The notes: generated by a model not told the origin, from the sequence alone. DNA of 64,000 nucleotides from an uncultured Acidimicrobiales bacterium (GCA_963739835.1 CAVUBW010000024.1:386840-450839), one strand, 5' to 3'. Shown: positions 2,140 through 53,910, counted from the stretch's first letter. Made by a program: numbers and translations.

Positions 2140-2439
2140 ATGCCCAAGTCGTTGGTCGAGCGCCGCCTGAGCCAGGTCGCCGGGCGCCTGCGGCAGCTGC
2201 GCGACGAGCTGGCCGTCAGCGACGAGCAGCTCGCGCACCTCGCCGACGCCGCCGACGACGCCCGGCTGCGTGCCCTGGTGTCCGAGACGCCCGTAGCCGA
2301 CGACGACCACCGCGAGGCCGAGCGGCACGCGGACGCCATGCGCCGCCACCAGGCCAAGGTCAGAGAAGAGATCGCCAAGCTCGAACGCAACCAGGACGAG
2401 CTGCTCGACCGGCTGCTTGCCGAGTCGAAGTCACGCTAA
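2140..2439 (+). CDS. small coiled-coil hypothetical protein (99 aa)
   Basis: Clean ORF MPKSLVERRLSQVAGRLRQLRDELAVSDEQLAHL...LERNQDELLDRLLAESKSR with high GC3. No family recognised. Confidence 0.55.
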   Translation: MPKSLVERRLSQVAGRLRQLRDELAVSDEQLAHLADAADDARLRALVSETPVADDDHREAERHADAMRRHQAKVREEIAKLERNQDELLDRLLAESKSR

Positions 2440-2508
2440 CGATGCTCGAACGCAACCAGGACGAGCTGCTCGACCGGCTGCTTGCCGAGTCGAAGTCACG
2501 CTAACGAT
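2379..2508. repeat. perfect 65-bp direct tandem duplication (2379-2443 = 2444-2508)
   Basis: gctcgaacgcaaccaggacgagctgctcgaccggctgcttgccgagtcgaagtcacgctaacgat occurs twice back to back. It covers the last 19 codons, the stop and 4 nt of the preceding ORF. Confidence 0.95.
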
Positions 2509-2532
2509 CACGCAGAAGCGAAAGGAACGCCC

Positions 2533-3127
2533 TTGGCAACCCGCGTCGTCATCGCCGAGGACGAGGCCATCATCCGCCTCGACCTGCAAGGAGACCCTCG
2601 AGGAGGAGGGCTACGAGGTCGTCGGCGAGACCGGCCGCGGCGACGAGGCCGTCGAGCTGGTCCGCGAGCTCGAGCCCGACCTCGCCATCCTCGACATCAA
2701 GATGCCCGGCATCGACGGCCTCGACGGCCGCCCGCGAGCATCGCCGGCGAGCGCGATCTGCGGCGTGCTGATCCTCACCGCGTTCAGCCAGCGCGACCTC
2801 GATCGAGCAGGCCCGCGACGCCGGCGCCCTGGCCTACCTGGTCAAGCCGTTCCAGCGAGCGAGCTGATCCCGGCCATCGAGGTGGCGCATCGGCCGCTTC
2901 CGCGAGCTGCAGGCGCCTCGCCGAGCGAGGCCGACGCGCTCGAGGAGCAGCTCGAGACCCGCAAGGTCGTCGACCGGGCCAAGGGCATGCTGATGGACGA
3001 GCCCGGCATGTCACGAGGCCGACGCGTTCGCGTTCATCCAGCGCACGGCGATGAGCGAGCGGCACCGACGGATGCGCGACGTCGCCGACCGGATCCTCGA
3101 CGGCGACGCTCGCGCCCGGACGCCTGA
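2533..3127 (+). CDS. pdtaR: ANTAR response regulator (PdtaR-like), many +1 extra bases
   Basis: RBS aaaggaa then TTG 2533. After removing single bases: VVIAEDEAIIRLDLKETLEEEGYEVVGE...DIKMPGIDGLDAAREIAGERICGVLILTAFSQRDL...LETRKVVDRAKGMLMDE...AFAFIQRTAMSERTTMRDVADRIL. Same length as mycobacterial PdtaR across the receiver and ANTAR helices. Confidence 0.85.
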
Positions 3128-3140
3128 CGGCCGACGCCGT

Positions 3141-5889
3141 CGGCCGGCGACCACGCTCCTGCTCATCGACGGCAACTCGCTGACCTACCGGGCGTTCTTC
3201 GCCCTGCCGACCGACATGACCACCGCGTCCGGCCAGGTCACCAACGCGGTGTTCGGCTTCACGTCGATGCTGATCAACCTGCTGCAGCGACCACCAGCCC
3301 GACGGCGTCGCGGTGGCCTTCGACCGGCCCGAGCCGACGTTCCGCCACGAGGCCGATCGCCGACCTACAAGGCCAACCGCGACGCGGCGCCCGACATCCT
3401 GCGCCAGCAGATGGGCCTGGTCCGCCAGGTGGTCGAGGCGCTGCGGCATCACCGATCCTCGAGCTGCCCGGCTGCGAGGCCGACGACATCATCGCCACCC
3501 TCGCCGACCAGGCCCGCGACGCCGGGCGACGACGTCATCATCGTCACCGGCGACCGCGACAGCTACCAGCTCGTCGAGGACCCCCACGTCAAGGTGCTCT
3601 ACAACCAGCGCGGCGTGTCAGCGACTACGCGCTCTACGACGAGGCCGGCATCGAGGAGCGCACCGGCGTCACGCCCGGCGCAGTACGTCGCAGTACGCCG
3701 CGCTGCGCGGCGACCCGCAGCGACAACCTGCCCGGCGTGCCCGGCGTCGGCGAGAAGACCGCGGCCAAGCTGATCAACACCTACGGCGGCCTCGACGGCA
3801 TCTTCGCCCACGTCGACGAGCAGACGCCGAAGCTGCGGCCAGAACCTGACCGAGCACGAGGCCCAGGTCCGGCAGAACGCCGAGGTCATGGTGCTGCGCC
3901 GCGACGCCCCGGTCGACGTCGACCTCGACGAGCTCGACCGTCGGCGACCCGACGCCGACGAGGTCCGGCGGCTGTTCGACTTCCTCGAGTTCCGCACGCT
4001 GCTCGACCGCCTGGCCGAGGCGCTCGGCGACGGCCGGCGTCGGCGCCGGCGGCCGCGCCGGCGAGGTGCTCGAGGCCGAGGCTCGAGGCCTGGACGATCG
4101 CCGCCGACGCCGTCGCGGCTGCTCGACGCGCTGGCCGCGGCGCGACGGCCGCTCGACCGTCGCCGCCGCCTGGCCGGCGAGCCGACGGCCGCTCGCCGCT
4201 GGCCGGCCTCGCCGCTCGTCACCGACCGCGCCGGCGGCCGAGGTCGCCTGGATCCCCGCCGACGCTCGCTGGCCGACGATGCCGGTCGCGCTGGCCGGGC
4301 TCGTCGGCGCCGGCGGCCGACCGCTGCGCGGCCCACGACGCCAAGCCGCTGATGCGCGCGCTCGCCGAGCTCGACGTCGACGTGCGCGGCCTCGGCGCTC
4401 GACACCGCGATCGCCGCCTACCTGCTCGACCCGGCCGAGGCGCGCTACGCGCTCGACGAGCTGCTCGAGCCGCTACGCCGACGCTCGCGCTGCCCGACCG
4501 ACGACGGCCGCCGGCCGAGGGCCAGCTCGACTTCGACGGCGACGCGCGTCGACGTCGCGCGAGCTGGCCGGCCCGCCGACGCGCTCGCCGTCGACCGCCT
4601 CGTCGAGCCGCTCGCCGCCGCGCTCGACGCCCAGGGCCTGCGCGGCGCTCGTACGACGACGATCGAGGAACCCGCTCGTGCGGGTGCTCGCCCGCATGGA
4701 GCACGTCGGCATCGGCGTCGACGTCGGCCGAGCTGCGGCGCGCTCAACGAGCGAGCTCGTCGCCGAGGTGCGAGCGCGCTGCAGCGCGCAGATCTGGGAG
4801 GACGCCGGCGAGCGAGTTCAACGTCAACTCCACCGCCGCAGCTGCGCGAGATCCTCTTCGACGAGCTGCGGCCTGACGCCCGCAGAAGAAGACCAAGACC
4901 GGCTACTCCACCGACGCCGCCGTCGCTCGAGAAGCTGCGCGGCCAGCACCCGATCATCGAGCCCCTGCTGCGCTACCGCGAGGTCGAGAAGCTGCGGTCG
5001 CACCTACGGCGAGGGCCTGCTCGCCGAGGTCGCGCCCGACGGCCGCATCCACGCCACGTTCAACCAGACGGTGGCCCGCACCGGCCGGCTGTCAGCTCCG
5101 ACCAGCCGAACCTGCACAACATCCCGGTGCGCACCGAGGAGGGCCGGCCAGTTCCGCAAGGCGTTCGTGCCCGCGCCCGGGCTACGAGCTGCTGGTGGCC
5201 GACTACAACCAGATCGAGCTGCGCTGCATCGCCCACCTCGCCGAGGACCCGGGCCTGATCGAGGCGTTCGACGAGCGGCCAGGACATCCACACCGCCACC
5301 GCGTCGCGGGTGTTCGGCGTCGAGCCCGGCGACGTCACCGTCGAGCAGCGGTCGAAGGCGAAGATGGTCTCGCTACGGCCTGGCCTACGGCATGGAGGCC
5401 TACGGGCTCGGCCAGCGGCTCGGCATCCCCACCGAGGAGGCCGCCGGTGATCCTCGACGCCTACTTCGTGGCCTTCCCGGCCGTGAAGGACTACATGGAC
5501 CGCACGGTGGCCGAGGCCCGCGAGCGGGGCTACACCGAGACGCTGTTCGGCCGCCGCCGCCCGATCCCCGAGCTGCTCGAACTCGAACTTCCGCATCCGC
5601 CAGGCCGGCGAGCGCCAGGCCATGAACGCCGGCATCCAGGGCCTGGCCGCCGACATCTTCAAGGTGGCGCTGGTCCGCCTCGACCAGGCGCTCGAGCGAC
5701 GGCGGGCTCGACGAGCCGCCTCATCCTCCAGGTGCACGACGAGGTGCTCGTCGAGGTGCCCCGAGCCGAGCACGACGCCGTCGGCCGACCTCGTGCGTCG
5801 ACGCCATGCGCGGTGCCGCCGAGCTGCGACGTGCCGCTCGAGGTGAACCTGTCGTTCGGGCGACACGTGGGCCGACGGCGAAGGGCTGA
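3141..5889 (+). CDS. polA: DNA polymerase I, many +1 extra bases; start codon not resolvable (about 3130-3150)
   Basis: [105 protein letters not shown] spread over three frames. Restored C-terminus ...TWADAKG with TGA 5887-5889. Confidence 0.9.
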
Positions 5890-48611: not shown

Positions 48612-48676
<65 letters not shown>

Positions 48677-48695
<19 letters not shown>

Positions 48696-49374
48696 CGAAC
48701 CCTGAGTACACGGCCACCGGCCCCGACCTGCGCTCTTCCGTCCGGGTGGTACGTGAGGTTCACGCCCAGCTCGTCGTAGATCGCGTGTTTGTCTGCGGGT
48801 CGGCGTCGGCTAGGACGCGACGATGTCTTTGGGCTGGCGCACGAGGGCCTTGATCTCGGCCGTCGTGAGCTTGCGGGTGGCCGGCTTGCGGCGGAGCTCA
48901 CGCTCGATCCGCCTGCGCTCCCGCTCGACCTCGGCGATCCAGGTGGCGACCACGGTGATGTTGGCGTCTTGTTCGAGGAGCTGCCGGTACCGGGCGAGCT
49001 TCGTGTTGCACTCCTTGAGCTGTCGGCGCAGGTCGAGTACGCGGCCCTCATCGTCCTCAGGCTCGAGGTCGCTGACCGCAGCCAAGGCCTCGCAAGTGCT
49101 GTCGAGGTGCTCGTCGTCGAACAGGCTGGCGATCCACGTGTCGACGCCGGCACGATCGCGGCCTCGCGGACGTAGACGGTCCTGGATGCTGGCCCTCAGC
49201 GACCGCGTACTCAGACGGGAACTTGCATCGGTAGTACGCCTGGCCGTGGTTCCATGATCCCTGCATCTTGCGACCGCACTGCGCGCAGCGGACCATGCCC
49301 GAAAGGACATAGGTGTTGCGGGTTTGCTCCGGCGGGACTTGGCCCGTTGCGCGGGCCGGGTGGGGCGCTGCCAC
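48677..49374 (-). pseudogene. large serine recombinase, C-terminal part only (zinc-ribbon and coiled-coil), at least four frame breaks, catalytic N-terminus missing
   Basis: ...NTYVLSGMVRCAQCGRKMQGSWNHGQAYYRCKF / RTVYVREAAIVPA / VDTWIASLFDDEHL...ARYRQLLEQDANITVVATWIAEVERERRRIERELR...KALVRQPKDIVAS / LADADP / ADKHAIYDELGVNLTYHPDG. The 3' end runs into the tRNA. The GAF-ANTAR gene stop at 49381 replaces where the resolvase domain should be. Confidence 0.75.
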
Positions 49375-49380
49375 GGGTGA

Positions 49381-50118
49381 TCAGGAGGAGTCGATGGTTC
49401 CTGCCTCCCAGGCCCTGGGATCGAGGGTGCCGTCGATCGCGGCCTGGGCGACGTCGGTCAAGTGACGATTGTGGTCCCGGGCGTATTTCCGGAGCCGGGA
49501 GAACGCTTCGGCCATGTCGATACCTGCCCGCTCGAACACCACCCCCTTGGCTTGCTCGATCACGATTCGGCTCGTCAATGCGTGGGTGAGTTGTTCGTTC
49601 ACGCGCTGCGACTCGGTGGCGGCTCGTTGTTGGAGGACCGCGATGGCCGCGAGGTCCGCGAACGCTCGGGCCACCAGCACGTCGGCCTCGTCCATCGGAG
49701 TCTCTTCGGTGCTCACCAGGTTGAGGGCGCCGATGGTCAGGTCGCGGAGGCGCAGAGGCACGGCGAACGCTGACTGGAAGCCCGCCTCGACTGCCACCGC
49801 GGCGAACCGCGGCCAGCGGCCGGTTCCGGCGCGGAGGTTCTCATGTTGGACGCGCTCGCCGGTGCGAAACGCATCCAGGCAGGGGCCTTCCCTCGCCTGC
49901 AGCTCGAACAGCTCCAAAACGCGCATTGCTTCTGACGATGAGGCAACGAGCCGCAGATCACCGCTCGGCGAGGCGAGCATCACGCCCGCGGCAGCGGCAC
50001 CGAGCAGATGCACGCACCGGTCGGCCAAGCCGGTCAACAGATCGACCACGTCGAAGTCGGCGGTGAGCGTGTCGGCCAGGTCGACGAGGGACTGCACAAC
50101 ATCGCCCTCGCGGGTCAT
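49381..50118 (-). CDS. GAF plus ANTAR domain RNA-binding regulator
   Basis: Clean 245-aa ORF: ...DRCVHLLGAAAAGVMLASPSGDLRLVASSSE...EGPCLDAF...FAVPLRLRDLTIGALNL (GAF), then ...LTHALTSRIVIEQAKGVVFERAGIDMAEAFSRLRKYARDHNRHLTDVAQAAI (ANTAR). Confidence 0.85.
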   Translation of the reverse strand: MTREGDVVQSLVDLADTLTADFDVVDLLTGLADRCVHLLGAAAAGVMLASPSGDLRLVASSSEAMRVLELFELQAREGPCLDAFRTGERVQHENLRAGTGRWPRFAAVAVEAGFQSAFAVPLRLRDLTIGALNLVSTEETPMDEADVLVARAFADLAAIAVLQQRAATESQRVNEQLTHALTSRIVIEQAKGVVFERAGIDMAEAFSRLRKYARDHNRHLTDVAQAAIDGTLDPRAWEAGTIDSS

Positions 50119-50152
50119 CTCGATCCTCCGTTCTCCGCGACGACGTGGGAGG

Positions 50153-50971
50153 TCATTCGAACCTGAACCTTCGGGCCACGACGTCTTCGGCGACGTCGCG
50201 CAGCAGCCGGTCGTTGCTGAAGGCGTAGGCGCGCATCCGGACCAGTGCCTCGGTCACGCTGATCCCGAGCTGGACGGAGACCGCGCCGGCCGCGTTGTGC
50301 ACGATGTAGTGGAAGTCGGAGTCGTGCTCGAGCTCCTCGGCCATCGCGCCGGGGGGCGCGTTGGCCTGGACGTCCAGCACCCACTGAGCGAGGACATCCG
50401 CCATCACCAATGCGTCGGCATGCTGGTCGTCGGTCAGCGGCCCGGGACCATCGCTGTAGAGGTTCAGGGCGCCGAGCCTCACGGTACCCACCTGCAGCGG
50501 GAACGCGAACAGAGCCCGCACGCCCGCCTCGACCGCCCGTGGCGTGAACGCAAGCCATCGCGTGGTACTCGGATGCGCCAGGTCGGGCTCCAGCACGACC
50601 CGGTCCATATGGTAGGCGTCCACGCACGGACCCTCGCCCAGCGTGAACTGCAACTCCTCGATCAGGTTGCTCACATCGTTCGTAGTACACAGCGAACCCC
50701 GCGGCACCTCGCCCGACATGAGCATCACCCCGGCTCCTGACACACCGATGACGTCGCGGGTGACCTCACACAACCGAGACGAGGACCACCCGCCGTCACC
50801 GTCGGCCGACAGCTCCGCCAGGATCCGCGACAGCCGCTCGCCTGTCACGAGGGCCCTCTGCCAACTCCGGGCGGGCCGACGTGCCTCGTGCCGGCCTGTG
50901 TCCAACGATCCACCGACCGCCTCCTTGGCTCGAGAGGAAGACGTCAGCAGGGTCCGGTCCAACGCAGGCAT
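50153..50971 (-). CDS. GAF plus ANTAR domain RNA-binding regulator (second copy); start uncertain
   Basis: ...LCEVTRDVIGVSGAGVMLMSGEVPRGSLCTTND...GEGPCVDAY...FAFPLQVGTVRLGALNLY (GAF), then ...FHYIVHNAAGAVSVQLGISVTEALVRMRAYAFSNDRLLRDVAEDVV (ANTAR). The track ORF extends to 51208, but that part belongs to another small frame. Confidence 0.8.
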   Translation of the reverse strand: MPALDRTLLTSSSRAKEAVGGSLDTGRHEARRPARSWQRALVTGERLSRILAELSADGDGGWSSSRLCEVTRDVIGVSGAGVMLMSGEVPRGSLCTTNDVSNLIEELQFTLGEGPCVDAYHMDRVVLEPDLAHPSTTRWLAFTPRAVEAGVRALFAFPLQVGTVRLGALNLYSDGPGPLTDDQHADALVMADVLAQWVLDVQANAPPGAMAEELEHDSDFHYIVHNAAGAVSVQLGISVTEALVRMRAYAFSNDRLLRDVAEDVVARRFRFE

Positions 50972-50997
50972 CCGAGATCCGGACAGCAACCTCTGTG

Positions 50998-51208
50998 TCA
51001 CACGATACGCCCTGTCACCACACGATCGCCTCCGAGCCCGGACGACATCGACGGGTCGAGGCCGACATCGGGATCGTCGCAAGCCAGCGTGGGCCGGAAC
51101 AGATCGAGCAGCTCGGCGAGCATCGCCCTCCAGCAGATCCTCCCCCGGCATCACGATGATCGCCCGGGTTTCCTGCTCCACGACGTTGGCTCGCGTGGCC
51201 GTGATCAT
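50998..51208 (-). CDS. small ORF (~69 codons after removing one extra base at 51121), weak STAS-like pattern
   Basis: MITATRANVVEQETRAIIVMPGEDLLEGD then LAELLDLFRPTLACDDPDVGLDPSMSSGLGGDRVVTGRIV. GC3 stays high only if the frame is changed at gat|g|ctc. The ATG overlaps the upstream stop (ATGA). Confidence 0.35.
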
Positions 51209-51960
51209 GAGCGTGACTGTCTCCTGCGCTTGTCTCGCGGCGAACTGGCAGACAGACGATGTCGACCGCGTCCCGGATCGTGGCTGCAGCCCGGCTCGGC
51301 CGCCGTGAAGCGTCGCACGCGGTCGCGACCCGGCGCCCCATCCTGGGGGGCCGCGGCTCGACGCCTGCCTCGGATGGATCTGGCGCCGTTGGGTGCTCCG
51401 ATCAACTCATGGCCGTGGGTGATGGCGATCCTGGCGTGACGTACGAGCCGCGTGGCCTCGGTGATGCCTTCTCGGGTGCTGGGCGGTGCATCGCTTGCGA
51501 CGGCATCGGTCCAGAGCCCGACGAGGAGGCGGTCGACCTGCAAGAGCGCATCTGCGGCCTTCTCGACGATGGGCTCGGCCTCCGAGGAAGAGTCGCTGCT
51601 CGAAGGTTCAAGATTGGGTCGAGACCACGAGCTGTCGCGGGGCTGGGCGGCGAGGGCAGTGTGGCGGAGTCCCCGCACCAGTCCGTCGAGGTCGTCGATG
51701 GCCTGGTCCAGCCGAGCCGAGGCGAGACCTCCGTTCAGGCTCCGAGCGGCCGCCAACGTCAGCGAGACTGAGAAGATGTCCTGAACGACGCGATCGGCAA
51801 GCTGAAGGCAAAGTTGGCAGTCGGCTGGGGCGGGATCTGGCTGTGATTTGGGTGCGGGCGTCGGTGGCTCGATATCGCCGCGACCACGGGCAACCCTCGG
51901 TGTGCGATTCGCAGTCGCCTCTGGAACCGGAGTGCCGCCCGCCGCGGAGGCTGTGGGCAT
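51205..51960 (-). CDS. hypothetical protein with a HisKA_3-type H-box helix lacking the histidine; no ATPase domain
   Basis: MPTASAAGG...CLQLADRVVQDIFSVSLTLAAARSL...DQAIDDLDGLVRGLRHTAL... Compare the NarL-group kinase H-box LHDxVIQxLFAVGLxL. The C-terminal third has poor GC3, so the end is uncertain. Confidence 0.45.
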   Translation of the reverse strand: MPTASAAGGTPVPEATANRTPRVARGRGDIEPPTPAPKSQPDPAPADCQLCLQLADRVVQDIFSVSLTLAAARSLNGGLASARLDQAIDDLDGLVRGLRHTALAAQPRDSSWSRPNLEPSSSDSSSEAEPIVEKAADALLQVDRLLVGLWTDAVASDAPPSTREGITEATRLVRHARIAITHGHELIGAPNGARSIRGRRRAAAPQDGAPGRDRVRRFTAAEPGCSHDPGRGRHRLSASSPRDKRRRQSRS

Positions 51961-52253
51961 CACGCTGTCTCGGTGCGGAGTGCGAAGTCGAGTGTGGCGA
52001 TCGCTCGCTCGGTGGTCTCCGTAGCCCGTTCCGTCGCAGCGCGGAGTACGCGGGCGCGTGCTCGGTGAAGCACCCCGAGGTCGCCACCCACAGACTCCAG
52101 CAACCGGAGGGCAGCAACGTGGGGAGACCAGGCCTCGTCGAGGATCACCCGAACAAGGTGAAGCATCGCGGCATCGGTGCTCGGGCGACGCGGACAAGCC
52201 GTCCGGGGTCCCGAGGTGTCGGGCGAGGGTGCATCGGGGCGTTCTGTCTCCAC
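51960..52253 (-). CDS. small hypothetical protein, first gene of the minus-strand cluster
   Basis: ...MLHLVRVILDEAWSPHVAALRLLESVGGDLGVLHRARARVLRAATERATETTERAIATLDFALRTETA. Its stop overlaps the next ATG (TGATG). Confidence 0.4.
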   Translation of the reverse strand: METERPDAPSPDTSGPRTACPRRPSTDAAMLHLVRVILDEAWSPHVAALRLLESVGGDLGVLHRARARVLRAATERATETTERAIATLDFALRTETA

Positions 52254-52463
52254 GTCGGCGCCTCCTGTGGCGATAGTCGCCGGGGTCCGGAGCGACGTGG
52301 TGTGTCAACACACGAGAAGGTCGCACGGTAGGTGCGCTACCTGCCGCTGCGAAATAGGGTCAGCCCTAAACCTCGGTGGGGGACACCCCCACTCGCTCAC
52401 CCAGATCCGCCCTTCGCGAGGTCGGCCAAGTCGTCTAGAGGGAGAAACAGGGAGGAGTCGGCG

Positions 52464-53156
52464 GTGTCAGAACAGTCGGAGGAGACGACGCGAGTAGCTA
52501 TTGCGAGCGACTACTTCCTCACACGCGAGGGCCTCGCGTGCCTCCTCTCGGGTGTCGACGGTATCGACGTCGTCGCACGGGTCGCGTCCCACGCTGACGT
52601 CGTCGATGCGGTCCGGCGCGATCGGCCAGATGTTGTCGTCGTCGGCATCCGCGCTGGACAAGTAGCGGCGGAGGAGACGCTCGCCGCTGCCGCCCAGCTC
52701 CGTAGCGAGCACCCTGAGGTCGCGATCGTGGTCGTCGCGCTCGAAGGCGACCACTTCGCCATGGAGCTACTACGTCGCGGGTCGTGTGGCAGCGCGTTTC
52801 TGCTCGATGATCGGATCACCGATCTCGACGTTCTCGCGACGGCCATTGCCCAGGCCCGAAGCGGGCAAGTGACGCTCGACTCCGCGGTTGTCGACAGCCT
52901 CGTCCACCGGCGGACAGGTTCGAGGCTCGACGAGCTCACACTCCGGGAACTCGACGTGTTGGCCGAGATGGCGAAAGGGCACTGCAATCGCGTCATCGCG
53001 GAGGATCTGTCGATCTCGACCAAGGCTGTGGAACGGCACGTGACCAGCATCTTTCGCAAGATGCGCGAGTTCGACTCCAAGCGATTCGATCCCCGAGTGG
53101 CGGCGGTCGTCACGTACATCGGTGCCTTTGGATCGGTGCGTGCCCCGGACAGATGA
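52464..53156 (+). CDS. LuxR/NarL-family regulator with a degenerate (pseudo-)receiver domain
   Basis: RBS agggaggag then GTG 52464. The receiver fold aligns with the neighbouring NarL regulator, but DD is SD, the phospho-Asp is Gly (ggc 52644-52646), Thr is Ala and Lys is not conserved. C-terminal HTH: ...LTLRELDVLAEMAKGHCNRVIAEDLSISTKAVERHVTSIFRKM. Confidence 0.8.
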   Translation: MSEQSEETTRVAIASDYFLTREGLACLLSGVDGIDVVARVASHADVVDAVRRDRPDVVVVGIRAGQVAAEETLAAAAQLRSEHPEVAIVVVALEGDHFAMELLRRGSCGSAFLLDDRITDLDVLATAIAQARSGQVTLDSAVVDSLVHRRTGSRLDELTLRELDVLAEMAKGHCNRVIAEDLSISTKAVERHVTSIFRKMREFDSKRFDPRVAAVVTYIGAFGSVRAPDR

Positions 53157-53861: not shown

Positions 53862-53910
53862 GCGTGTACTCAGGGTTTGTGTCGCCCCTCCGACACGAAC
53901 CCCAAGAGCC
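53862..53910. repeat. attR-like junction with dyad symmetry
   Basis: gcgtgtactcagggtttgtgtcg-cccctc-cgacacgaaccccaagagcc. The left arm matches the reverse complement of 48691-48713 at 21 of 23 positions. Confidence 0.6.

Follow-up and report, generated by a model that had tools for sequence, protein, structure and literature searches.

A recurrent pair of GAF-ANTAR paralogues, one of them a putative pseudo-ANTAR, with small partner proteins on a decayed tRNA-Leu island of an uncultured Acidimicrobiales bacterium

The window analysed here, a stretch of 64,000 nucleotides (nt) from an uncultured Acidimicrobiales bacterium (GCA_963739835.1, CAVUBW010000024.1:386840-450839), holds on its minus strand, between positions 49,381 and 52,253, a cluster of small genes that ends in two genes for proteins with a GAF and an ANTAR domain. 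The question raised by this locus is what two paralogous ANTAR proteins are doing side by side, next to small proteins, on an apparently tRNA-inserted island. A first reading of this DNA, made without database searches (hereafter the sequence-only reading), had described five open reading frames (ORFs) as one translationally coupled operon; they are named here GA1 (GAF-ANTAR no. 1), GA2 (GAF-ANTAR no. 2), A (an ORF of 97 codons), B (a His-less protein) and C (an ORF of 69 codons). We lean slightly towards an answer in which the cargo of a decayed tRNA-Leu island includes a copy of a signalling module that recurs among actinobacteria and is made of four families, GA2, GA1, A and B, the regulatory roles of which we infer.

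GAF and PAS inputs are reported to be typical of actinobacterial ANTAR proteins, and GAF-ANTAR is reported to be the commonest ANTAR architecture of mycobacteria (bioRxiv 10.1101/660928). Our search of the literature returned neither a characterised GAF-ANTAR protein nor a description of a competent ANTAR protein paired with an RNA-blind one.

The GAF-ANTAR pair and its residue signature

GA1 is a canonical GAF-ANTAR protein lying where the sequence-only reading had placed it (49381-50118), and both of its domains score above the Pfam cut-offs, which are 27.3 bits for ANTAR (PF03861) and 28.6 bits for GAF_2 (Table 1). GA2 passes the GAF_2 cut-off as well (31.0 bits, with 64.2 for GA1), but its ANTAR score of 21.8 bits stays below the corresponding one; homology of this ANTAR-like domain to the ANTAR domain of GA1 is given a probability of 98.3% by hhalign. 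The gene had been drawn from 50971 down to 50153 as a second GAF-ANTAR gene, and while its GAF and ANTAR-like homology is confirmed, its start is more likely the GTG at 50848, since homology begins only near residue 42 of the ORF so drawn and since a protein of 231 residues is called at this place in L074, a Joint Genome Institute metagenome contig that is 98-99% identical to the window and has the same gene order, A-B-C-GA2-GA1.

The difference between the two paralogues becomes apparent at the positions that matter for RNA binding in NasR according to mutagenesis (PMC7496416), which were tallied over 101 GA1/GA2 pairs. Mutagenesis of NasR indicated that an Ala at the aromatic position abolishes RNA binding and that a change of the Lys weakens it (PMC7496416). 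GA1 of the window keeps the equivalents of all five NasR residues, R340, K347, F362, R366 and N373, within the sequence SRIVIEQAKG...AF..LR...N, and the same holds for almost every GA1, with Arg at 340 in 101 of 101 proteins, the Lys of the AKG motif at 347 in 100, an aromatic residue at 362 in 99, Arg at 366 in 100 and Asn at 373 in 92. Among the 101 GA2 proteins, R340 is found in 27 and N373 in 11, the aromatic residue is replaced by Leu in 97, and position 347 is never Lys or Arg (0 of 101) and is occupied by Ala (55), Ser (38) or Thr (8), R366 being kept in 100 of 101. Furthermore, the Glu of the IEQ motif has become His in 94 of 101 GA2 proteins, which gives the family a VHQA(S/A/T)G signature of its own, seen in the window as VHNAAG in place of IEQAKG, and the linker of GA2 carries a conserved Pro-Gly at a place where the helix of GA1 is unbroken. 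As judged from these alignments, GA2 is a conserved pseudo-ANTAR from which the Lys and the aromatic residue have been lost systematically, and the Arg at 340 and the Asn in most cases.

This pairing is by no means restricted to the island. Within the class, a GA2-type gene was recognised in 103 of 401 genomes, distributed over 64 of 177 genera, and GA1 lies directly downstream of GA2 on the same strand in 28 of 29 loci from these genomes, as it does in 76 of the best 80 loci from species-representative genomes. In the latter genomes at least 554 pair loci were confirmed, in Acidimicrobiia, in Actinomycetes (Streptosporangiaceae, Sporichthya and Mycobacteriales) and in Nitriliruptorales. The gap between the two genes has a median of about 109 nt over 101 pairs, and in the window it measures 34 nt, as had been noted. 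The sequence-only reading had presented the arrangement as cargo of the island; the pair is not peculiar to it, as the tandem of GA2 followed by GA1 is widespread in Actinomycetota and the two genes are common chromosomal neighbours.

The two families also share a history. A maximum-likelihood tree separates all GA2 from all GA1 proteins by a single branch with 100% support; a mirror-tree comparison of the pairwise identities within GA1 and within GA2 gives a correlation of r = 0.76, with a permutation maximum of 0.17; and the mean pairwise identity is equal for both families (0.586 for GA1 and 0.584 for GA2). The single-branch split, together with the correlated and equal divergence, indicates that GA2 is an old paralogue co-inherited with GA1 and not a decaying gene.

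Proteins of the GGDEF-EAL or PAS-GGDEF type flank GA2-GA1 in about 10% of loci (L075, L090, L102, L128, L133, L135, L143, L151; L159, L163). Such neighbours, related to cyclic di-GMP, hint at a cyclic nucleotide as a possible ligand of the GAF domains.

Gene map, coupling and the GA2-GA1 leader

Whether the two GAF-ANTAR genes form one operon with the small ORFs depends on the gene map, which was corrected by comparison with L074. The genes called on that contig encode 97, 186, 69, 231 and 245 residues, and of the five ORFs of the sequence-only reading four are real genes, while the 69-codon one is unsupported. The small ORF at 51960-52253, A, is present as described and is conserved. The next gene, B, had been described as a His-less protein of 251 codons, and a longer ORF on the minus strand, 51205-52326, encloses it. 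A base-by-base comparison indicates that the window is 2 nt short of L074 at about 51420, so that the 186-residue B reads through as 251 codons, which is how the ATGA at 51205-51208 arises. In the assembled sequence the frame of 251 codons is uninterrupted, but conservation is confined to its residues 1-181. Thus the His-less H-box of the described protein stands, but its length is really 186 residues, the rest being read-through. Of the two start/stop overlaps that had been put forward, the TGATG of A and B at 51958-51962 is genuine and recurs in L028, L033, L074, L155, L156, L159 and L163, while the ATGA between B and C is a product of the frameshift and no real stop/start junction.

C fares less well. 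It is an intact ORF of 69 codons in L074, but an extra G at position 51112 shifts its frame in the window, where it spans 211 nt and is hence no ORF, its ATG at 51208 being in the frame of GA2 and its TGA at 50998 in another one; a plot of the GC content at third codon positions likewise places a frame switch near 51120. C has no match in Pfam or NCBIfam at E values up to 10 and no homologue among 5.8 billion clusters. Scored with a profile built from the STAS genes found before GA2 in other loci, it reaches 4.7 bits, over the N-terminal half only, and with 69 residues it is short of the 100-110 or so that a STAS fold needs. C is therefore probably a non-gene, or at most a relic, and not a working STAS protein. 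The STAS-like character that had been ascribed to it is unsupported, but the idea behind it has some merit, as genuine STAS genes are frequent partners of such pairs elsewhere: about 30 of 109 related loci have one directly before GA2, with Pfam STAS_2 scores of 43-47 bits. The Ser phosphorylation site varies among these partners (S/A/T/G).

Both frameshifts, at about 51420 and at 51112, may be assembly errors, since housekeeping genes of this assembly, such as polA and a REC-ANTAR gene, are frameshifted too. Two insertions of 52 and 15 nt relative to L074, at 51284-51355 in the non-coding stretch after B, are too large for read errors and point to real indel variation at the strain level.

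The corrected map bears directly on the operon proposed by the sequence-only reading, in which all five ORFs would be coupled and a STAS-like protein and a pseudo-kinase would run a partner-switching cascade over the two ANTAR antiterminators. The genes are indeed co-directional, with no terminator-like site between them (a scan for terminators and sigma-70 promoters returned no sites on the minus strand), the order A-B-C-GA2-GA1 is shared with L074 and resembles an A-B-X-GA2-GA1 order in L159-161, and STAS genes precede GA2 in about 30% of related loci. However, the overlap is limited to A and B, the ATGA of B and C being the frameshift by-product already mentioned, and C has neither a homologue nor a significant STAS score. 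Between B and GA2 lie about 550 nt, which hold a conserved promoter-like box, a leader and an upstream ORF (uORF) of GA2-GA1, placed between C and GA2 and partly inside C. Furthermore, the A-B block and the GA2-GA1 block flank a LuxR gene on opposite sides in L028, and an anti-sigma kinase, a PP2C phosphatase and a sigma factor are all missing. A single five-gene operon governed by such a cascade is thus, in our opinion, highly improbable, and the coupling retained here concerns A and B, which are predicted to be a translationally coupled pair. Searches of the source genome and of its genus returned no homologue of the junction DNA itself (50840-51400), the RNA fold of which is no more stable than that of shuffled sequences (z = +1.75).

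The leader of GA2-GA1 was delineated by k-mer enrichment and alignment, and its elements are listed in Table 1. A search with nhmmer finds it upstream of GA2 in 21 of 115 loci, once per locus, including the window and L074. A GC hairpin is found in the leader of most relatives, and the TGA stop of the uORF overlaps the GTG start of GA2 (GTGA). Those related leaders that were inspected by eye have a uORF of about 20 codons in the corresponding position, except that in L037 no stop codon occurs within the sequence inspected. The leader argues for a GA2-GA1 unit that would be transcribed and translated separately, and it is a candidate cis target. As a mark of a wider regulon it was discarded, a single nhmmer match being found in the window's own genome.

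Table 1. Features of the locus, with window positions, strand and the evidence for each.
Feature	Position	Strand	Evidence or remark
GA1, canonical GAF-ANTAR protein, 245 residues	49381..50118	-	Pfam ANTAR 63.6 bits, GAF_2 64.2 bits
GA2, GAF and putative pseudo-ANTAR protein, 231 residues, GTG start	50153..50848	-	GAF_2 31.0 bits; homology and L074 call for the start
A, 97 residues, stop overlaps the start of B	51960..52253	-	conservation; hidden Markov model matches in L076, L159, L163
B, His-less DHp-like (dimerisation and histidine phosphotransfer) protein, 186 residues in L074; frame runs to 51205 in this assembly	51402..51960	-	homologues, L074 comparison
C, orphan 69-codon ORF	50998..51208	-	frameshifted at about 51112; 3' end overlaps the -10 box of the leader
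Conserved GA2-GA1 leader	50914..51007	-	k-mer enrichment and alignment
-10-like TATCGT (relatives TA(G/T)CGT)	51002-51007	-	leader alignment
Invariant box CCCTGCTGAC	50943-50952	-	leader alignment
Pyrimidine anti-Shine-Dalgarno stretch	50935-50943	-	pairs with Shine-Dalgarno sequence and uORF start in the RNAalifold consensus
Shine-Dalgarno sequence AAGGAGG	50920-50926	-	leader alignment
uORF, 22 codons, GTG start (50911-50913)	50845..50913	-	read from sequence
LuxR/GerE regulator with pseudo-receiver, divergent from A-B	52464..53156	+	GerE 46.5 bits
tRNA-Leu(GAG), island integration site	48612..48696	+	ARAGORN; Rfam tRNA 52.8 bits
Left 18-nt direct repeat copy, spans the tRNA 3' end	48685..48702	+	blastn-short
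Right 18-nt direct repeat copy, far end of the island of about 5.2 kb	53885..53902	+	blastn-short
Serine-recombinase remnant	48810..49374	-	Pfam Zn_ribbon_recom, 32.2 bits

The existence of this leader gives some weight to another view of GA2, which we nevertheless consider unlikely, in which GA2 would be an RNA-binding subunit of altered specificity and a GA1:GA2 heterodimer would read an asymmetric two-part RNA, perhaps the leader of its own operon. Recognition of such an RNA would explain why the canonical dual-hexaloop target (a two-hairpin RNA with A1, G4 hexaloops, scanned for in the island and in 34 related loci) is missing, while a conserved structured leader is present. Moreover, the ANTAR-like domain of GA2 diverges no faster than the ANTAR domain of GA1 and has its own invariant signature, VHQA(S/A/T)G...AL..LRA, with R366 kept in 100 of 101 proteins. 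Against this view, a positive charge (Lys to Ala, Ser or Thr) and an aromatic residue have been lost, both of which matter in NasR (PMC7496416), the Pro-Gly of the linker argues against the continuous coiled coil of known ANTAR dimers, and the leader accompanies only 21 of 115 loci.

The small proteins A and B and a model for the module

A and B are small helical proteins. For A, the AlphaFold2 (AF2) model comprises a disordered N-terminus and a four-helix core, with a predicted local distance difference test (pLDDT) score of 75; A has no Pfam or NCBIfam match, and a fold search against the Protein Data Bank (PDB) returned no neighbour with an E value below 1. The possibility that A is a free-standing ANTAR-like domain was ruled out, hhalign giving it a probability of 0.1-0.2%. 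A is rare, with 2 occurrences among 401 genomes of the class.

B belongs to a very small family, with 33 representatives among 1.84 billion proteins, the members of which measure 140-190 residues and share a common end point; on these grounds a recent origin of B as a fragment of a DosS-like kinase was ruled out. The H-box of B reads LADRVVQDIF, compared with DLHDTVIQRLF in DosS-like kinases, with Ala at the position of the His, and the alignment of the family has no conserved His at this site that could accept a phosphate. No HATPase_c match was found in Pfam, and the protein ends after a second helical hairpin, in line with the AF2 model, which consists of two helical hairpins (pLDDT 63). 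The HisKA_3 profile does not match B of the window and gives weak matches in 3 of 15 family members, with a best E value of 1.7e-4. The first helical hairpin of B probably derives from the HisKA_3 dimerisation domain, deprived of the His and of the ATPase. A fold search of the PDB with B returned only generic four-helix (Dps) matches with root-mean-square deviations of 18-20 A, and a sequence-profile search of the PDB gave only coiled-coil noise.

The relation of these two proteins to the GAF-ANTAR pair can be judged from their neighbourhoods in other genomes. The four families occur together as A-B-PAS/GGDEF-GA2-GA1 in L159-161 and as PAS/GGDEF-GA2-GA1-A-B in L163, while three-family sets are found as GA2-GA1-A in L001, L014, L015 and L016 and as GA2-GA1-A-kinase in L076. 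B is convergent with GA2-GA1 in L162 and follows a GAF-ANTAR gene in L166, and in L028 the pair lies about 2 kb from A-B; L033 (A-B) and L029-32 (LuxR-A-B) have no GAF-ANTAR gene nearby. When the window and L074 are counted as one context, GAF-ANTAR genes lie within 2 kb of B in 6 of 8 informative contexts, which involve distant sequences (26-30% identity) and differing gene orders. A proximity that is kept while the order is shuffled points to a functional link of A and B with GAF-ANTAR pairs, and the claim that the pair is joined to small proteins gains from their recurrence beside pairs in distant genomes. A stand-alone His-less HisKA_3 protein lies beside the pair in L078, L081, L093, L108, L110, L116 and L136; four of these shorter proteins were scanned against Pfam (L081, L108, L110 and L116), all with Asn or Ser in place of His, and 3 of the 4 pass the cut-off of 24 (25-33 bits). 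Full GAF-HisKA_3-HATPase kinases come after GA1 in L076 and L077.

The same contexts allow one to weigh the opposite explanation, according to which the juxtaposition is meaningless and the A-B/LuxR and GA2-GA1 blocks adjoin through rearrangement in a scrap-heap island and work independently. The island is decayed, with a recombinase remnant, indels and a unique junction DNA without homologue; each of the two blocks has homology limits of its own; A-B stands in L033 with no GAF-ANTAR gene, as does LuxR-A-B in L029-32; and most GA2-GA1 pairs lack A and B. Yet B is extremely rare and nevertheless has a GAF-ANTAR gene within 2 kb in 6 of 8 informative contexts, these contexts are only distantly related (26-30% identity) and differ in their order, and A comes directly after GA1 in five other loci. 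A chance encounter of the two blocks accordingly seems to us a poor explanation, with little probability.

The window's own genome contains a second module on another contig, at G000:C17:518960-520855 (L001 4961-6855, minus strand), in the order GA2'-GA1'-A'. Its products are 41% (GA2'), 48% (GA1') and 48% (A', 98 residues) identical to those of the window, and it has neither a B gene nor a copy of the leader.

Returning to the four-family module that we favour, we propose a mechanism in which GA1 would be the RNA-binding output. GA2 would bind GA1, with the GAF domains or the ANTAR-like bundle making the contact, and would either withhold GA1 from an RNA-competent homodimer or form an asymmetric dimer with it. 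A and B might be protein partners that shift this balance in response to a ligand or a state, a role that could be taken in other genomes by STAS proteins, PAS-GGDEF proteins or DosS-like GAF kinases. The operon's own leader would be the likely cis target for feedback.

Several points weigh against this proposal. The putative GA1-GA2 heterodimer is deduced only from pairing and residue loss, and the VHQA(S/A/T)G signature of GA2 is itself strongly conserved and could form a different RNA- or ligand-binding surface. The leader hairpin shows almost no covariation (a term of -0.29 kcal/mol in RNAalifold), so that its structure rests mainly on sequence conservation. The island contains no dual-hexaloop ANTAR target apart from one chance pattern match inside the tRNA, which agrees with the earlier remark that no obvious target is visible nearby, and dual hexaloops are not enriched near the 34 related loci (10 matches, as compared with 13.7 +/- 2.7 in shuffles). 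Neither A nor B gave a significant match in fold searches. Among 109 sampled GA2-GA1 loci, A is present at a single one (L076), to which five loci found via A or B are to be added, and 7 of the 109 have a protein of the B family or a His-less HisKA_3 protein in the vicinity; this scarcity indicates that A and B are optional accessories. Finally, the linkage of the LuxR gene to A-B is seen in close relatives only (L028-L032 and L074). Searches of Rfam, at the gathering threshold over the whole window and in E-value mode at 48-54.5 kb, returned only tRNA.

GA1 resembles the one-component regulators NasR (NIT-ANTAR) and PAL (PAS-ANTAR) and the two-component regulators EutV, AmiR and PdtaR/Rv1626 in that a sensor domain is followed by a helical linker and a three-helix ANTAR domain. 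It differs from these systems by being paired with a paralogue that lacks RNA-binding residues, by the absence of a dual-hexaloop target nearby and by the absence of a kinase or AmiC-type partner at the locus. There is also a likeness to AmiC-AmiR, in which the activity of an ANTAR antiterminator depends on the binding of another protein, by steric hindrance, and the gene for that protein directly precedes its own in one operon. Such an interaction is proposed here for GA2-GA1; but AmiC is an amide sensor of the periplasmic-binding-protein type unrelated to AmiR, whereas GA2 is a paralogue of GA1. The SpoIIAA/SpoIIAB/SpoIIE and RsbV/RsbW/RsbU systems are brought to mind by the STAS genes that come right before GA2 in about 30% of related loci, and the restraint of an active factor by its look-alike or by an antagonist would follow a similar logic. 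In contrast to these partner-switching systems, the window has no STAS protein, anti-sigma kinase, PP2C phosphatase or sigma factor, and the output would act on RNA and not on a sigma factor. As for HisKA_3 kinases of the NarX/DesK/DosS type and the anti-kinases that bind DHp domains, the first hairpin of B can be aligned to the H-box helix of GAF kinases of the DosS type, but the His has given way to Ala in B and elsewhere to Asn, Ser or Gly, an ATPase domain is missing, and no cognate phosphorylatable receiver is found, the adjacent LuxR protein having a pseudo-receiver.

A generalisation of this model can be put forward tentatively, and we regard it as rather doubtful: GA2-type pseudo-ANTARs might be dedicated antagonists or asymmetric partners of the co-encoded ANTAR paralogue, with interchangeable inputs (STAS proteins, a His-less DHp protein plus A, PAS-GGDEF proteins and DosS-like kinases). 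If true, this would amount to a widespread post-transcriptional partner-switching system in Actinomycetota, with RNA targets unlike the classical dual-hexaloop motif. Three findings stand apart from this generalisation: a large share of GAF-ANTAR genes comes as obligate pairs in which a competent paralogue is joined to a predicted RNA-blind one; the pairs have recurrent protein partners, namely STAS proteins, His-less HisKA_3 proteins that stand alone and a new four-helix protein; and one subfamily of pairs has a defined leader RNA with a uORF. What is new here is the link of the pair to A/B and His-less DHp proteins, together with the residue, tree and census statistics. With these results, what was an anonymous annotation becomes a signalling model that can be tested, for which two proteins, two helpers and one RNA would be the reagents.

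The island, its LuxR gene and the assembly

The statement that the cluster sits on a tRNA-inserted island is borne out. The 18-nt repeat at the 3' end of the tRNA-Leu gene and its copy at the far end are identical at 18 of 18 positions (E = 9e-5, blastn-short within the window), and the serine-recombinase remnant keeps a zinc-ribbon and coiled-coil part, without catalytic domain and split over two frames. The GC content is about 67% at 49-54 kb, as compared with 72-78% in the flanks. The region thus combines a repeat at a tRNA 3' end, a truncated integrase gene and a deviant composition, and the tRNA-Leu, the perfect repeat and the truncated recombinase together indicate that a decayed island of about 5.2 kb is real; with an integrase that is not intact, it is immobile. 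The sister contig L074 lacks the recombinase remnant, and GA1 lies there about 95 nt from the tRNA. GA1 of the window is 82-84% identical to copies in other families and only 48% identical to its own genomic paralogue, which is consistent with acquisition on the island. This island copy of the module is ordinary cargo and no special invention.

The LuxR/GerE gene that is divergent from A-B encodes a regulator whose GerE helix-turn-helix is recognised, while its Response_reg score is 21.8 bits, below the cut-off of 30.2; in the alignment the receiver shows DD changed to SD, D to G at the phosphorylation site, T to A and K to D. In L029-L032 (e.g. L029 1-9329) LuxR/A-B lie among Usp genes and genes for a TreT-like trehalose synthase, a ribosome hibernation factor and an IS110 transposase, a neighbourhood of the dormancy or stress type.

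The window comes from a high-GC actinobacterial metagenome-assembled genome, in 28 contigs and 63% complete. At 2417-3773 (+) a PdtaR-like REC-ANTAR gene and the adjacent polA N-terminus are frameshifted, the ANTAR domain of the former being split between two frames at about 2936-3098. With these two genes broken and a completeness of 63% in only 28 contigs, pervasive indel errors of the assembly are suggested, and pseudogene calls need caution. At 4004-4102 (+), ARAGORN reports a 99-nt "tRNA-???" with a four-base anticodon (tcgg), which has no Rfam match at the gathering threshold.

On L163 (2220-10432), a metagenome contig of 203 kb, the module has as its immediate neighbours a TrwC relaxase, an HTH_17 excisionase-like gene, a PIN gene and a tyrosine integrase; these neighbours indicate that the module also rides on an element of the integrative conjugative type.

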